A stretch of DNA of 64,000 nucleotides, taken from the IMG/VR virus record IMGVR_UViG_3300001765_000033, positions 30,583 through 94,582 of that record, one strand, 5' to 3'. Under the pieces are notes generated by a model. The model saw nothing but the letters and a program-made list of their open reading frames with translations, was not told the DNA's origin and did no database searches. Shown piece after piece: positions 12,218 through 62,975 of this stretch (position 1 is its first letter; every line of letters begins with the position of its first letter). This DNA comes from a virus. The position numbers and the translations under genes are program-made.

Positions 12218-12418
12218 AAATAAATTCTAAAACACCAGAATTACTGAGCGAAGCGAAGGCGAACGAAGTGAGCTAAGAATCTCATTTGCAAACTAGAATT
12301 TCTGGTTCAATTTCTGAACACAATTACCACCAAAAATATAAAAGTTTCTAATTGGTTTCTTAGCTCACTTCGTTCGCCTTCGCTTCGCTCAGTAATTCTG
12401 GTGTTTTAGAATTTATTT
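12218..12418. repeat. Perfect 62-bp inverted repeat with 77-bp AT-rich spacer; candidate replication origin
   Basis: 12218-12279 is the exact reverse complement of 12357-12418; lies in the ~500-bp gap before uvsY. Confidence 0.9.
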
Positions 12419-12549
12419 AAAATCATTTCTAGAAACCATTAAAATTTATCACTTACGACTAAATATATTCTCTTAATTAGAGGGGACTGCGAGAGCTTAA
12501 CAGGTTCTATGGTTCTTGTCAAGCACTTTCTTCAAATTGACCATACTTC

Positions 12550-12581
12550 CCGATGAACGGCAGTGATTAGCCGATGAACGG
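12550..12581 (+). repeat. Direct repeat CCGATGAACGG x2, 21-bp period
   Basis: Copies at 12550-12560 and 12571-12581. Confidence 0.75.
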
Positions 12582-12710
12582 TAAACATTTGTAAGTTTCT
12601 GTAAGGCCGCCTTTTTGCTGTTTCTAGTGTTTTCCATAGGAATTCTGCTTTTCAGGTTAAAATAGGACACTAAATAGGAAGTCAACCAAACGTGACTTGA
12701 GGACTAAATT

Positions 12711-13154
12711 ATGAAACTTACCATTGACGACATCATTGCAGAGTGGAAAGCAGACAACACTATCGATGAAACCAAGCTACCGTCAGAGCTAATGAAGACA
12801 CCACTGCTTCATTCAAAATATCTTGAGGTCTATCTTCAGATCAAAAGAAAATTCATTGCAGCCACAGCATCCTACAACAAGCTAAAATTCCTAAGAAAGA
12901 AATATTTCAGAGGCGAAATGACTCGGGAAGAACTTGATGCTCAAGGATGGGGCCAATATCAGGGTCTGAAAATGTCTCAGACCGAATTCAATTCAATGTC
13001 AGAAATTGATCCTATGCTTAGTGACGAATGGGTCAAAGTTGAGTACCTAAAGAGTCTTGTTGAAGGTCTTACCTACATTCTCAAAGAAATCCAAAACAGA
13101 GGTTATACCATAAAAACGATGGTAGAGTACAACAAAATGATGATGGGTGGCTAA
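12711..13154 (+). CDS. uvsY: Recombination mediator UvsY
   Basis: EWKAD..ID, TPLLHSKYL, I.NRGYTIK; adjacent to uvsW. Confidence 0.9.
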   Translation: MKLTIDDIIAEWKADNTIDETKLPSELMKTPLLHSKYLEVYLQIKRKFIAATASYNKLKFLRKKYFRGEMTREELDAQGWGQYQGLKMSQTEFNSMSEIDPMLSDEWVKVEYLKSLVEGLTYILKEIQNRGYTIKTMVEYNKMMMGG

Positions 13155-14682
13155 AATGACAGACAATGTTACCATAACAAAGTTCAATGAAGTCTGGTTT
13201 TATGTCGAATGCTCTACTGACATAAAGTACGAATTGAATGATCATTTTCAGTTTGAGGCTAACAACGCCAAATATCATCCATTGGTAAAGCTTGGTCGAT
13301 GGGATGGTATGATCAGGATGTTCAATCCTCAAAAATCATTGCTACACATCGGATTGCTGCCACTTTTAGAAGATTTTTGTCAGGCTAGAGAGTACACCTT
13401 ATCGTTTAAAAATCATCCAGAGTTTGGCAGTCCAGTTTATGTTTCTGTGCTACCTGATCAAGATGTTATCGACTATGTTGATTCTTTGGACATTCATTCT
13501 GGTGGTAATAAGATAACTCCATATGATTATCAGTATGATGCTATTAAATTGGGAGTATTGAAGCGAAGAGCAGTATGCATTAGCGCAACAGGTTCTGGCA
13601 AAAGTCTCATGATTTACGGCATATCCAGACATACACTTTCATTGGGATATAAGGTTTTGATCATTTGTCCTACGGTTCAGCTTACCGAACAAATGGCATC
13701 AGATTTTGCTGATTACTCCAGCCACAACGGATGGGATGCAGAATCAAATATTCACAAGATTCATTCTGGAAAAGAAAAAGAGTCAAATAAATCTATTACG
13801 ATTTCTACTTGGCAGAGTCTGTTAAAGATGCCAGCCGAATATTTCAATAAATTTTCATGTGTTATCTGTGACGAAGTGCATCTGGCATCTGGCAAATCCA
13901 TAACTGATATTATGGAAAAATGCACAGATGCAAATATTAGACTTGGATTTACTGGTTCCTTGGATAAGAGTTTGACAAATAAACTTCAGATTCAGGCGTT
14001 ATTTGGAAAAATAACTAAAGTATCATCATCAAGAGATTTGATTGATAAGGGGCACTTGACAGAAATCAAAATATCTGCTATAATGCTTGATTACTCTGTA
14101 AATACCAAAGCAGCATTAAAGTTATTCCTTGATAAAGACAAGAAAACTGCATATCAGAGAGAAATTAAATTTTTAACTGCGCATGAAAAGAGAAATAAAT
14201 TCATTTCAAATTTGGCTGCTTCTACAAAAGAAAATACTTTGGTATTTTTTAACTTAATTGAGCACGGTAAAACATTATTTGAGTTGATAAAAGAAAAAGC
14301 ACCAGATAAAAAAGTTTACTTTATTGACGGTCATGTAGATGTAGATATTCGTGAGGAATATAGAGAAGAAATTGAAGCTAGGAATGATCTTGTTATCGTA
14401 GCATCTAGCCAAACTTCAGCAACTGGAGTTAATTTTAAAAATCTGCATCACATTGTTTTTGCTGCTCCGACAAAATCTTTGGTTAGGGTCTTACAATCGA
14501 TTGGTAGAGGTCTGAGAAAATCAAAAGGAAAAGATATAGTTAAGCTATATGACATTGGTGATAATTTAACGAAATCGAAAGTTAAAAAGAACCATACTTA
14601 TAATCATTTTATTGAAAGGTTGGCCATTTATGCTAAAGAAGATTTTTCCTACAAACTTATTGATTTGGTTATCGAAAAATGA
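13147..14682 (+). CDS. uvsW: DNA helicase UvsW
   Basis: WDGMIRMF, ATGSGKS, DEVH, QSIGRGLR. Confidence 0.95.
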   Translation: MAKMTDNVTITKFNEVWFYVECSTDIKYELNDHFQFEANNAKYHPLVKLGRWDGMIRMFNPQKSLLHIGLLPLLEDFCQAREYTLSFKNHPEFGSPVYVSVLPDQDVIDYVDSLDIHSGGNKITPYDYQYDAIKLGVLKRRAVCISATGSGKSLMIYGISRHTLSLGYKVLIICPTVQLTEQMASDFADYSSHNGWDAESNIHKIHSGKEKESNKSITISTWQSLLKMPAEYFNKFSCVICDEVHLASGKSITDIMEKCTDANIRLGFTGSLDKSLTNKLQIQALFGKITKVSSSRDLIDKGHLTEIKISAIMLDYSVNTKAALKLFLDKDKKTAYQREIKFLTAHEKRNKFISNLAASTKENTLVFFNLIEHGKTLFELIKEKAPDKKVYFIDGHVDVDIREEYREEIEARNDLVIVASSQTSATGVNFKNLHHIVFAAPTKSLVRVLQSIGRGLRKSKGKDIVKLYDIGDNLTKSKVKKNHTYNHFIERLAIYAKEDFSYKLIDLVIEK

Positions 14683-29681: not shown

Positions 29682-30875
29682 ATGTTACCAATTAACACTT
29701 TTCATTATGACAGATATATTCGATTTTTATCTCTATTACCAAAAAGAGATAAACCAAAAGCTAAATTTAGTGGATTAGAAAAACATCACATATACCCAAA
29801 ATCTTTCGGTGGAACTGATGATTTAAGTAATTTGATATATTTAACTTGCCGAGAACATTATCTAGCCCATTGGATGCTTGCTAAGGCGTATGGCGGAGTT
29901 ATGTGGTTTGCGTTTAATCAAATGAAGCGAGTCATACAAGGCGATATTAAGAAAAGCAGTTTATATTCTTTATCCAGAAAATATATTTCTGAGCAAATAA
30001 GTATTTCTAATACTGGAAATACTATGAGTGATTATGCTAAAAACCTTAAGACTATTATGTTTTCCGGTAAAGTTTGGGTAAAAAATAAAGATGATTATTC
30101 CGATTATATGTTAATTTCTAATACTGATGAGAGATATTTAAGTGGTGAATATGTTGGAATTCAAACTGGATTGCTTAGGTCTGAAAGTTCTAAGAAAAAT
30201 ATGGCAGATAAAAACGGACTGAGAGGAAAAGTTAGTGCGTATAATATCCAAACTAAGGAAGTGTCGTATTTTTATGAAAGTGAAATTCCATTAGACTATA
30301 TAAAAGGCAGAACCCCCGAATTTAAGAATATAATATCAGAAAGATACACAGATATGAAATTTTATAAGAATTTTGATACTGGTGAAACCAAAAGAATAAA
30401 AGATGGTAGCCCAATACCATATGGATTTATTCTTCACAGAAATTTGGATGATATGCAGAATGGATTGAACAAAATGAACGATCCTAATAGTATGTTAGTT
30501 TATGATGTATCGTCCAAAATTTCAAAAATAATACCCAAAACCGAATTTAATTCAAGTAAATTTTATACTTCTGTGGCTACCACTGCAAATGCTGTTGTTT
30601 TTGAAAATTATGTTTTTGATTCCGTAGATACATTTAATAAACTTCTTCCGGATTTTAAAAAAATTAGTAAAAAAAATGCTACGGATAAAATCAAAATGGG
30701 TAAGCTACAGAAGAGAAAATTCTGTGAAAAATTTAAAGATATGTGTTATAATGATATAGGTTTCTTCGTAATTAAAATTACGGAGTTAGTTTGGAATGAA
30801 GATATGATTTTTATAAGGAAAATTGATGAATCTCTCGCAAATGAGTGTAGAAGAATTGTTATGTGCGAAGCATAA
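29682..30875 (+). mobile_element. Free-standing HNH homing endonuclease (Mob-like) inserted in gp43
   Basis: EKHHIYPKSFGGTDDLSNLIYLTCREHYLAHWML. Confidence 0.88.
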
Positions 30876-56035: not shown

Positions 56036-56065
56036 TTGACACTTTCGCAAATTCTGTGTTACAAT
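56036..56065 (+). promoter_or_regulatory. Sigma70-type early promoter TTGACA-N18-TACAAT with TG extension
   Basis: TTGACA 56036-56041; TGTGTTACAAT 56055-56065. Confidence 0.8.
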
Positions 56066-56071
56066 ACATCC

Positions 56072-56329
56072 ATGAACAAAACTCAAGCCCAAATCTCCGA
56101 AATTCTCTACAATCTTGACCCTATGAACACAGGGTGTGTGGAGAATTCTATGTTAGACGAATACGATGCTGAAGCAGAGGGAATCGCACACTATCTTGAA
56201 AAAGGTCATCCTCTGAAGTATGCTATTGTTTTAGTTTTTGAGTATAATTTTTGGATAGGTTGTCTCAATGATCACCAAATCGAAGCAATCATGAAAGAAA
56301 TGACTTCAATAAACAACGAAGAAATTTAA
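56072..56329 (+). CDS. Early hypothetical protein (possibly leaderless)
   Basis: ATG 6 nt after the -10; IL..LDP...DEYD.EA motif. Confidence 0.6.
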   Translation: MNKTQAQISEILYNLDPMNTGCVENSMLDEYDAEAEGIAHYLEKGHPLKYAIVLVFEYNFWIGCLNDHQIEAIMKEMTSINNEEI

Positions 56330-60915: not shown

Positions 60916-61110
60916 ATGCGTAAACAAATTAAAGTTGGGGTTCGTGTTACAATCCCGGTTGGGACATTGGTTCACTCTCAGGCTTCAAAAAGTCATCGGG
61001 TTAAGCAATCGGTTGTTACAGTTCGTGAAATGACCACTAAAATGTCTGGTGTTGTTCAGATTTCGTGGAAAAGCCGTGGTTATAAAGCAACAACTTCTTT
61101 TAAAAGATAA
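60916..61110 (+). CDS. Basic hypothetical protein
   Basis: Open frame, AAGGG SD. Confidence 0.55.
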   Translation: MRKQIKVGVRVTIPVGTLVHSQASKSHRVKQSVVTVREMTTKMSGVVQISWKSRGYKATTSFKR

Positions 61111-61138
61111 ATAAAGTTAAAAAGTTGTTGCGTGACTC

Positions 61139-61459
61139 AAAAACTGTGTTACAATACATACATGGAACAAAATGATCGAGTTAGGTTCCAAGAAAAGCAA
61201 AAGCAAAATCAAATTTGGTAGTTAAGGTTTATAGCCAGGGCATATTTTCGCTAGCTTGTTGTAACCTCCGTAGTCGGTAGTTAGATGCCGGGCATAGAGG
61301 AAACTGAATAGGTGCGGTGCCGTAGATTATAGAGTTAGCGCAGAGTTGCTGTAAAAAGCGTGATAGCCCTGCCTATAAACCTTAAAAATAAGTGTTGATA
61401 ATACTAAAAACTGTGTTACAATACATACATGGAACAAAATGATCGAGTTAGGTTCCAAG
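61139..61459 (+). repeat. Perfect 54-bp direct repeat (promoter plus GGAAC/GTTCC hairpin) at 61139-61192 and 61406-61459
   Basis: AAAAACTGTGTTACAATACATACATGGAACAAAATGATCGAGTTAGGTTCCAAG, two copies. Confidence 0.92.
61222..61385 (+). ncRNA. Unassigned structured RNA (~164 nt)
   Basis: 13-bp and 6-bp closing stems, inner CGCTAGCT/AGTTAGCG stem; lies between the tandem promoters. Confidence 0.65.
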
Positions 61460-61468
61460 GATTTAGAA

Positions 61469-61479
61469 GCTCTTTAAAA
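61469..61479 (+). promoter_or_regulatory. boxA-like antitermination element
   Basis: GCTCTTTAAAA vs rrn boxA GCTCTTTAACA, just before the first tRNA. Confidence 0.65.
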
Positions 61480-61486
61480 GATTAAT

Positions 61487-61558
61487 GTCGCTATAGTTTA
61501 ATGGTTAGAACCACAGGTTTTCATCCTGTAGATGGGGTTTCGATTACCCCTAGCGACT
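61487..61558 (+). tRNA. tRNA-Glu (UUC), CCA not encoded
   Basis: Acceptor GTCGCTA/TAGCGAC; anticodon arm ACAGG-TTTTCAT-CCTGT; T arm GGGGT-TTCGATT-ACCCC. Confidence 0.88.
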
Positions 61559-61560
61559 CA

Positions 61561-61612
61561 AAATTATGATATTCCTGAGACAATAGCGCGAATATATCAG
61601 GGGTCATAATTT
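61561..61612 (+). ncRNA. Hairpin RNA, short homolog of 62249..62345
   Basis: 27-nt identity (61565-61591 = 62249-62275); AAATTATGA..CCTGA / TCAGG..TCATAATTT stem. Confidence 0.55.
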
Positions 61613-61688
61613 GGGGGCGTAGTGATAGAGGGCTACACGCTGGTTTTGCAATCCAGAGATTGGGGATCGTTACCCCACGCTTCCACCA
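61613..61688 (+). tRNA. tRNA-Ala (UGC)
   Basis: G3.U70 pair, A73, encoded CCA, anticodon loop TTTGCAA; atypical T loop ATCGTTA. Confidence 0.85.
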
Positions 61689-61706
61689 AAATTATTCTCA
61701 AAATTA

Positions 61707-61785
61707 TTCTCGTGTTTAGCGGGGCTAGCGCAAGCTCTTGCCAATGATTAGATAACGTGTTATGCAATGAACACCACGAGAGCCA
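61707..61785 (+). ncRNA. tRNA-like RNA with acceptor stem and CCA but no cloverleaf
   Basis: TCTCGTG / CACGAGA-G-CCA. Confidence 0.55.
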
Positions 61786-62037
61786 AGATACTAAGACAAT
61801 ACAGACTACTATGAGTAGATGAAAACCGAGCCGGAAGATGTTCCGGTCTTCACAGTGCGTGTGGACACAATGAGAAACGTAAGGTGACGATGCGAGAGTA
61901 AGTCGGTCCAGTAGGGGTAGGAAATGTGTTGTTAGCGGAAAGAGTTGCTAGAACGACAAAAGTTATGTAGAAAGCCCGGATGTAAAAATCCCATGACACT
62001 ACTACGATAACGCCGTGCAATCGTTCAAGAATTAAAT

Positions 62038-62061
62038 GTCGCATTAGACTTCTAGTGAGGT
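62038..62061 (+). pseudogene. 5' fragment of a tRNA (acceptor and D-arm-like)
   Basis: GTCGCATTAGACTTCTAGTGAGGT resembles a tRNA-Glu 5' half; no anticodon or T arm follows. Confidence 0.35.
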
Positions 62062-62175
62062 AGAGTGTGCCCGCAATATGGAAATGTCGAGTGCCAATTA
62101 AAAGAACTCACTTCTGCCGAACCTGTAAGTAACACGTGACGATACTATCCGTGTGGCATGGTTCTTAGTTATCAT

Positions 62176-62250
62176 ATTCAAATTCATTGCTGAAGTTGGT
62201 TCAGTTAGACAGGGATATCCAATTGCCTATGTCGTTAGTGAATTTGAATA
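62176..62250 (+). ncRNA. Three-way-junction structured RNA
   Basis: TATTCAAATTCATTG / TAGTGAATTTGAATA closing stem; inner CTGAA/TTCAG and GACA-GG/CC-TATGTC hairpins. Confidence 0.5.
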
Positions 62251-62345
62251 TGATATTCCTGAGACAATAGCGCGACGATAGCACAGCGATAAAACACCGG
62301 GTGACAATAGCATTAGTAGCAACGATATCAGGTATCATACCACCA
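62249..62345 (+). ncRNA. CCA-ended RNA with repeated (G)AC(A/G)ATAGC motifs
   Basis: TATGATA..CCTGA / TCAGG.TATCATA stem followed by CCACCA. Confidence 0.55.
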
Positions 62346-62582
62346 ATTTTCAAAGGCAGTGACGCATGTTTAATAATTATTGGGGAACTACTGAAAGTCC
62401 AAGTTTGGATTTTATTAACTTTCTCGTTAGTGTAGCTCAAGGTGATGAAGATTTTCTAGATTACATCTATGGAGAAGGTCAGTGAGATGCTGATGTTGGT
62501 TATAAACTACACTATTTAAAAACAGTTGTTGTCCATTGTAAAAGTGTGATACAATTCAGTCTTCAACAAAACGGAACCTTTC

Positions 62583-62975
62583 ATGAAAAATCTATCTAAA
62601 TTCGTTGACGTTCTTTCTAAGGGTGAGTATTCACCACAAGAGGTTTGCTTGCAATTAGCAAAGACTGACCCTGAGTTGTTTCTTCAGTTGGTCGAATTGA
62701 CAAATATTAAACGTCAAGATTTGCCTATGTGGGTTAAGCCAGTGACACATGAAATTCGATATGTCGGATTTATCCAATCAATTAAGTTGCTTCGTCAGCA
62801 TACTGGTCTTGGTCTTAAAGAAGCAAAAGAAACCGTTGAAAATCTGATCAATTACAGACTCCATGTTTTGGGTGAGCGTTCTCATTATGATGTTTCGCAT
62901 AAATCAAACAATGAACTTAGTCAAGATTGTGCTAAAATCTTTGATGTTGTGTGTGAAGGATTTGCTAGGTATTAA
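62583..62975 (+). CDS. Protein with ribosomal L7/L12 C-terminal-like domain
   Basis: IQSIKLLRQHTGLGLKEAKETVE; early promoter at 62545. Confidence 0.75.
   Translation: MKNLSKFVDVLSKGEYSPQEVCLQLAKTDPELFLQLVELTNIKRQDLPMWVKPVTHEIRYVGFIQSIKLLRQHTGLGLKEAKETVENLINYRLHVLGERSHYDVSHKSNNELSQDCAKIFDVVCEGFARY

Follow-up and report, generated by a model that had tools for sequence, protein, structure and literature searches.

What does a phage make from a kilobase of DNA that holds two transfer RNA (tRNA) genes and no credible protein? The question is raised by positions 61139-62345 of a 64,000-nucleotide (nt) stretch of viral DNA (IMG/VR record IMGVR_UViG_3300001765_000033, positions 30,583 to 94,582; the whole stretch is hereafter the window). 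An earlier note, written from the sequence alone, had proposed an operon in the style of the bacterial ribosomal RNA (rRNA) operons (rrn), containing several unassigned structured RNAs and relying on host tRNA processing and antitermination. Its observation was confirmed by the analysis reported here, and its interpretation is partly supported. We read the region as the polycistronic stable-RNA operon of a distant relative of T4, with the layout of a bacterial rRNA operon, and put the probability of this reading at roughly 70%. Observed are the anatomy of the region (Table 1), the conservation and covariation of three of its non-tRNA units (C, D and F), and a conserved leader in which a promoter is followed by a hairpin and by the antitermination signal BoxA.

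The RNA region is bounded by the stop of a 64-amino-acid (aa) open reading frame (ORF) at 61110 and by the next promoter (62545). No credible ORF was found in 61125-62500, in agreement with the earlier note; between 61111 and 62582 the + strand holds no ORF longer than 44 aa, and protein-coding ORFs inside the region were rejected on a Pfam search that returned no significant match. ARAGORN and Rfam agree on the two tRNAs, tRNA-Glu(UUC) and tRNA-Ala(UGC), and over the region Rfam at E<=10 matched nothing beyond them except chance-level candidates, a CRISPR (clustered regularly interspaced short palindromic repeats) repeat (E = 9.5) and a permuted transfer-messenger RNA (17.8 bits, E = 0.53), both of which were rejected.

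Unit D was followed with an nhmmer family profile, against which the copy in the window scores 168 bits. Nineteen distinct copies of 197-265 nt align well, and RNAalifold on this alignment gave 43 pairs in nine helices, 23 of the pairs with compensatory changes. Pairing holds in 96.8% of the alignment cells, against 29-45% when the partners are slid, and the covariation score is 0.352, against 0.05-0.08 in controls; none of 500 shuffles reaches the observed values. A core of 30 nt, ACGATGCGA(G/A)AGTAAGTCGGTCCAGTAGGG, is near-invariant, and in the two D carriers tested the DNA polymerase is only 39-41% identical to that of the source phage. Most copies lie inside a same-strand tRNA array, with the CCA of the upstream tRNA just before the 5' end of D and, in most loci, the following tRNA beginning about 10 nt past its 3' end. 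Two contigs with an identical D copy (one of them G001) have no tRNA within 2.5 kilobases (kb), and in G001 D has its own TTGACA-N17-TATAAT promoter. Against Rfam at E<=10 no family matched D, even when its 266-291 nt alone were searched. On this comparative evidence D is a member of a new structured RNA family of phage tRNA arrays.

The relatives behind these comparisons came from pattern searches. The promoter-plus-leader pattern led to one IMG/VR contig with 28 tRNAs, whose record held homologues of D and F, and an 18-mer from a 30-nt block identical in both phages led to 22 IMG/VR contigs. An 18-mer scan of 185,579 prokaryote genomes returned two contigs of metagenome-assembled genomes, neither of which the D profile recognises; both matches are treated as chance, so there is no cellular D copy in the 185,579-genome set. 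Searches with blastn against 50,697 phage records gave no match, either for the whole region or for a consensus-like D copy, and exact-pattern scans of viral contigs for the B/G repeat and the tRNA-Ala T-arm gave nothing, or one chance match in coding sequence.

Unit C has a 7-base-pair (bp) acceptor stem and a 5-bp T stem with an 8-nt loop, and lacks an anticodon arm. Homologues were found in L107 and in L097, where D again comes next; each of the three sequences can form the full set of 12 pairs (7 of the 12 compensatory), and every copy has the G-CCA end together with a common GCCAAU and UUAGAUAA. The pattern of acceptor stem, T arm and NCCA occurs five times on the two strands of the contig, compared with 1.0 in shuffles. 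A canonical tRNA was rejected for C, there being no tRNA match at E<=10, and ARAGORN picks the unit up solely in the permissive mitochondrial mode, where its anticodon arm is poor. As judged from the three copies, C is a conserved tRNA-like RNA.

Homologues of unit F lie directly 5' of tRNA-Ala in L105 and directly 5' of tRNA-Arg in G001, and in both relatives the 3' end of F is at, or at most 3 nt from, the 5' end of the tRNA. The closing stem is rebuilt with a different sequence in each homologue and the inner hairpins are invariant; 98.8% of cells are paired, and eight of the nine compensatory pairs fall in the closing stem. By its pattern of substitutions F is a conserved three-way-junction RNA.

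The two inner hairpins of F have complementary loops, GUUGG and CCAAU (window 62195-62201 and 62225-62229), which do not vary among the three homologues. They suggest a kissing-loop contact, one that covariation cannot test because of this invariance.

Thermodynamic folding tells these units apart poorly from the others. Among the units listed in the earlier note, only A (z = -4.2), B (-2.9 to -3.5) and F (-5.9) beat shuffled controls, because of their long inverted repeats, and the folds of C, D, E and G are not above shuffles. The whole 657 nt give z = -0.16, and a sliding 100-nt scan gives p = 0.14 with no enrichment over the flanks; these whole-region and sliding-window scores are uninformative, since even real tRNAs are inconspicuous in them. 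The comparative data show C, D and F to be real conserved RNAs, though C and D do not exceed shuffles. The earlier note had counted at least six foldable units besides the tRNAs. Homologue collection and a covariation check, both of which it had proposed, found compensatory changes in C, D and F and so upheld the claim of several unassigned structured RNAs for these three, which covary and fall outside the known Rfam families. The count itself was too high: E is unsupported, 62040-62095 resembles a decayed tRNA, and no homologues of A, B and G were found among the relatives' sequences.

The head of the operon is marked by an exact 54-nt direct repeat (61139-61192 and 61406-61459) that carries TGTGTTACAAT and the hairpin, and both of the tandem identical promoters of the earlier note lie inside it. 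The promoter class TGTGNTACAAT has eight copies in the window, all on the + strand, where an estimate from composition expects about 0.4; on sequence grounds the extended -10 motif is a genuine promoter class. From the second copy onward the order is -10 box, hairpin, BoxA, tRNA. What had been called a boxA-like sequence after a hairpin proved to be a perfect BoxA, GCTCTTTAAAA, the sole match to GYTCTTTAANA on either strand of the 64-kb window, 8 nt ahead of the first tRNA; the consensus (PMC5725501) is gamma-proteobacterial.

A lone motif could be luck, and for this reason the count in the relatives is the decisive result. In 23 distinct 5-kb contexts (about 96 kb), GYTCTTTAANA occurs 15 times in the sense orientation (about 12 distinct leaders) and once in antisense, with about 0.5 expected by chance. 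Nearly all of these copies stand upstream of a tRNA array, after a TATAAT or TACAAT box and a hairpin of 6-9 bp that ends 2-5 nt before BoxA. In L101, L106 and L112 the leader is doubled at a spacing of 230-285 nt, as against 267 nt between the two promoters here, and in L101 and L106 the segment between the two BoxA leaders is closed by a 24-bp stem, mirroring unit A and its 20-bp stem. The tRNA arrays of these phages appear to be driven by rrn-type leaders of promoter, hairpin and BoxA, and the rrn-style architecture of the earlier note recurs at the head of the relatives' arrays.

In rrn leaders boxB precedes BoxA (PMC10250234). The leaders of bacterial rrn operons, of suhB and of CRISPR arrays are like the present one in having a hairpin-preceded GYTCTTTAANA past the promoter that drives a long untranslated transcript, and in rrn operons long stems flank some of the products, as they do here (PMC5725501; PMC10250234). 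This leader differs from them in being phage-encoded and in heading an array of tRNAs and small RNAs, not rRNA. Literature searches found no paper describing BoxA ahead of phage tRNA genes.

The segment between the BoxA leaders of L101 (1268-1524) and L106 (1788-2062; both in coordinates of the 5-kb contexts) forms a cassette, possibly another uncatalogued RNA, that combines a conserved element, GACGGCAAT...GCAGTCTGA...CTTGTCCC, with a T-arm like that of a tRNA.

Table 1. Features of the RNA region in the order of their window coordinates.
Feature	Position	Strand	Description
Promoter P1	61125..61155	+	Extended -10 TGTGTTACAAT at 61145-61155, in repeat copy 1
Leader hairpin, copy 1	61163..61190	+	GGAAC...GTTCC; fold z = -2.4
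Unit A	61222..61385	+	164 nt; 20-bp closing stem (inverted repeat); between the promoter copies
Promoter P2	61395..61422	+	TTGATA, 16 nt, TG-TACAAT; -10 at 61412-61422
Leader hairpin, copy 2	61430..61457	+	boxB-like position; identical to copy 1, offset +267
BoxA GCTCTTTAAAA	61469..61479	+	Perfect match to GYTCTTTAANA
tRNA-Glu(UUC)	61487..61559	+	ARAGORN; Rfam 65.8 bits; CCA not encoded
Unit B	61561..61612	+	Hairpin filling the entire inter-tRNA spacer
tRNA-Ala(UGC)	61613..61688	+	ARAGORN and Rfam; G3:U70, encoded CCA, unusual T-loop AUCGUUA
Unit C	61708..61785	+	78-nt tRNA-like RNA; ends G-CCA (CCA 61783-61785)
Unit D	61786..62037	+	252 nt; bounds from the family profile
Probable decayed tRNA	62040..62095	+	Fold z = -1.9; weak evidence
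Unit E	62103..62165	+	Unsupported as a discrete RNA; z = -0.3 to -0.6
Unit F	62170..62255	+	86-nt three-way junction; 16-19-bp closing stem
Unit G	62249..62345	+	7+5-bp minihelix, 64-nt loop; ends A-CCA-CCA (62339-62345)
Unit H (new hairpin)	62403..62497	+	Long imperfect hairpin; overlaps a 39-aa ORF at 62366-62485
Next promoter, same class	62545..62555	+	TGTGATACAAT; marks the end of the RNA region

The route that we infer for transcription, Nus loading, the cleavage enzymes and every function would begin with host RNA polymerase starting at the two identical extended -10 early promoters. Past the second promoter the transcript would carry the hairpin and then BoxA, which by analogy with the rrn, CRISPR and suhB leaders would load NusB and NusE (S10) together with other Nus factors, and the Nus-loaded polymerase would be spared Rho termination over about 1 kb of untranslated RNA. 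RNase P would cut the 5' ends of tRNA-Glu, tRNA-Ala, the tRNA-like C and perhaps G, RNase E/Z and exonucleases would act in the A/U-rich CAAAAUUAU trailers, and RNase III would probably cut the 16-20-bp stems of A, B, F and H. The products would be the two tRNAs and a set of non-tRNA passengers, of which D, C and F are the three conserved ones. Host tRNA processing, as the earlier note had it, fits the anatomy, D, C and F adjoining tRNA ends in many contigs.

Several findings weigh against an rrn-like operon. No boxC was identified in this leader, a further difference from the rrn, suhB and CRISPR leaders, and no BoxA follows the first promoter copy. The thermodynamic scans show no general excess of structure; C and F are each represented by only three sequences, and homologues of A, B, G and H were not found. 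F and G share 6-7 nt and hence cannot be folded simultaneously, and A and B (not H) could be repeats at the DNA level, because their long stems fold about equally well on both strands.

The non-tRNA stretches might instead be evolutionary debris, that is, functionless decayed tRNAs, spacers and duplication scars of a rapidly changing tRNA region, which we consider unlikely. Such decay is visible at 62040-62095, where about the first 21 nt are like the 5' part of an odd tRNA-Glu-like gene in L104 and the acceptor pairing is lost, so that this segment is probably a decayed tRNA. The fold of E is not significant, no homologues of A, B, G or H are known among the relatives, the 27 nt identical between B and G and the 12-nt tandem duplication at 61687-61711 are signs of recent rearrangement, and the genes adjoining the region are not conserved in the relatives. 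Debris is nevertheless ruled out for C, D and F by their conservation with compensatory changes, which D retains in carriers whose polymerase is 39-41% identical, along with its near-invariant core.

The decoy or regulatory role that the earlier note proposed for the RNAs is conjecture. Our best guess, taken from position only, is that D and C act in trans on the tRNA and translation machinery or on anti-phage defences that target tRNAs. A fuller version would make D a new class of RNA acting in trans on tRNAs or translation, with C as a tRNA mimic and F as a pre-tRNA leader for companions, all expressed through hijacked Nus antitermination; we hold this to be less likely than debris. Under this version D could be a catalytic RNA, for instance a minimal one of the RNase P type, or it could mimic a protein-binding site in rRNA.

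A lower rating still is given to the proposal that the long inverted repeats of A, B and F act as DNA and not as RNA, for example as miniature mobile elements, sites of recombination or palindromes that bind protein. A and F have almost perfect stems that fold about as well on one strand as on the other, the 54-bp direct repeat flanks A, so that recombination could excise or amplify it, and the order of modules varies (F-tRNA-Ala-D in L105, tRNA-Ala-C-D...F-G here). The stem of F, however, is kept through eight compensatory pairs, G-U among them, around invariant internal loops; F is always oriented like the tRNAs, and its 3' end meets the 5' end of one; no transposase or target-site duplication was seen.

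The D core (columns 132-165 of alignment A3, window 61886-61915) bears a possible resemblance to RNase P CR-I (GAGGAAAGUCCGGGCUCCAUAGGG) and to the 5S rRNA strand AUGCGAGAGUAGG. The order of the RNase P-like and 5S-like words in A3 fits neither topology, and no covariance model agrees. Least probable of all is that D is a diverged manA, GOLLD, ROOL, RNase P RNA or 5S rRNA and not a new family: GOLLD and ROOL occur near phage tRNA islands (PMC12286853) and manA in T4-like cyanophages (PMC2864571), but no Rfam family matches D at E<=10, and the manA model, which scores 121.8 bits in cyanophage S-SSM4, finds nothing at that threshold in four D-carrying records (G000-G003). As a class, GOLLD and ROOL (RF01998, RF03087), structured non-coding RNAs of phages and prophages, are the closest precedent, although D is far smaller than either; manA (RF01745) is a structured RNA of T4-like phages that lies in 5' untranslated regions, whereas D lies between tRNAs.

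The tRNA cluster of T4 offers a parallel in position. It yields the small RNAs RNAC and RNAD, whose function is still unknown (PMC3014915; PMC9697503), and in it co-transcribed non-tRNA stable RNAs (RNAC/RNAD, species 1 and 2) adjoin the tRNAs. The comparison with T4 drawn in the earlier note stands as an analogy of position and does not extend to sequence, blastn and nhmmer against the T4 tRNA region having found only tRNA-to-tRNA similarity and none to rnaC/rnaD. The present operon differs from that of T4 in its BoxA leader, its duplicated promoters and its different RNAs (C, D and F); in a BoxA search of the 5-kb T4 region that allowed one mismatch, the two matches were at chance level and on the strand opposite the tRNA genes.

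Some features of the remaining units bear description. Unit A folds with its z of -4.2 as a whole and with -0.1 for the interior alone. The loop of unit G contains GAC(A/G)ATAGC three times, and four of the five copies of this motif in the contig lie in B and G. G, whose end is one of the two stem-plus-CCA ends correctly reported earlier (the other being that of C), sits after F, where the relatives have a tRNA; it overlaps the 3' arm of F and its fold is not significant. Spacers bounded by inverted repeats are common between the tRNAs of the G001 array. The region had been placed in the earlier note as ending at 62345; its structured part in fact continues to about 62500 with hairpin H, which folds at -29.3 kcal/mol on the + strand (z = -3.3 to -3.6) vs -12.1 on the - strand (z = -1.6). 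An nhmmer search for homologues of A, B, E, G and H among the relatives' sequences found none.

Deviant T-loops recur among the tRNAs of this phage group, with AUCGUUA or AGCGUUA in place of UUCGAAU, as if positions 54 and 58 had been exchanged, and several such tRNAs are missed by ARAGORN. Examples are the tRNA at window 61613-61688, two in L068 (5789-5863 and 5876-5950) and the tRNA-Glu-like gene downstream of D in L104. At 61687-61711 a perfect 12-nt tandem duplication (CAAAATTATTCT, 2.1 copies) bridges the tRNA-Ala CCA and the acceptor stem of C, and CAAAATTAT, found also 3' of tRNA-Glu, could be a processing signal common to these 3' trailers.

In both promoter copies an ATG stands exactly 7 nt past the -10 box, and mini-ORFs of 19 aa (61162-61221) and 17 aa (61429-61482) have MEQNDRVRFQ in common. 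A promoter at 56055 is arranged likewise, and the ATG there starts an 85-aa ORF that looks real (56072-56329). Early mRNAs of this phage may be leaderless.

The window makes up the final 64 kb of a 94,582-bp IMG/VR contig with an estimated CheckV completeness of 53%. It encodes the T4-like genes rIIA, a gp46-like nuclease subunit, a gp41-like helicase and a T4-type DNA polymerase (gp43), and among cultured phages the polymerase comes closest to those of cyanomyoviruses, at just 43% identity; from this gene set and this identity the source is taken to be a distant, uncultivated T4-like phage. The raised GC content reported earlier is real and modest, at 0.425 over 61690-62345 vs 0.364 for the whole contig (top 8% of windows). 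A separate GC island of 0.54-0.58 lies at about 30.0-32.2 kb of G000 (window about -600 to 1600), against the contig mean.

Downstream of the RNA region, a 130-aa protein (window 62583-62975) has a segment like the C-terminal domain of ribosomal protein L7/L12, scoring 25.8 bits against Pfam PF00542 (cut-off 25.9). No close relatives were found of this protein or of the upstream exonuclease, and the neighbourhood is not syntenic, since 83 loci around homologues of the neighbouring Mom-like gene (IMG/VR and metagenomes) had no similar DNA and no similar flanking proteins. One relative identified through the Mom-like gene, L074, has a 1.25-kb ORF-poor stretch (12272-13530) ahead of its tRNAs, and at 12813-12924 a 112-nt tRNA-like gene with two T-arm-like segments (Rfam 40.4 bits) that ARAGORN misses.

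With C, D and F, three conserved and uncatalogued RNAs join an enigmatic set that includes T4 RNAC and RNAD, GOLLD and ROOL. D is ready for experiments, with its 19 distinct sequences, well-supported fold and near-invariant core. If the role of these leaders is confirmed, phages would be exploiting Nus-factor antitermination of the host in stable-RNA operons, beyond the lambdoid N system, and this antitermination would explain how kilobase-long untranslated arrays escape Rho.

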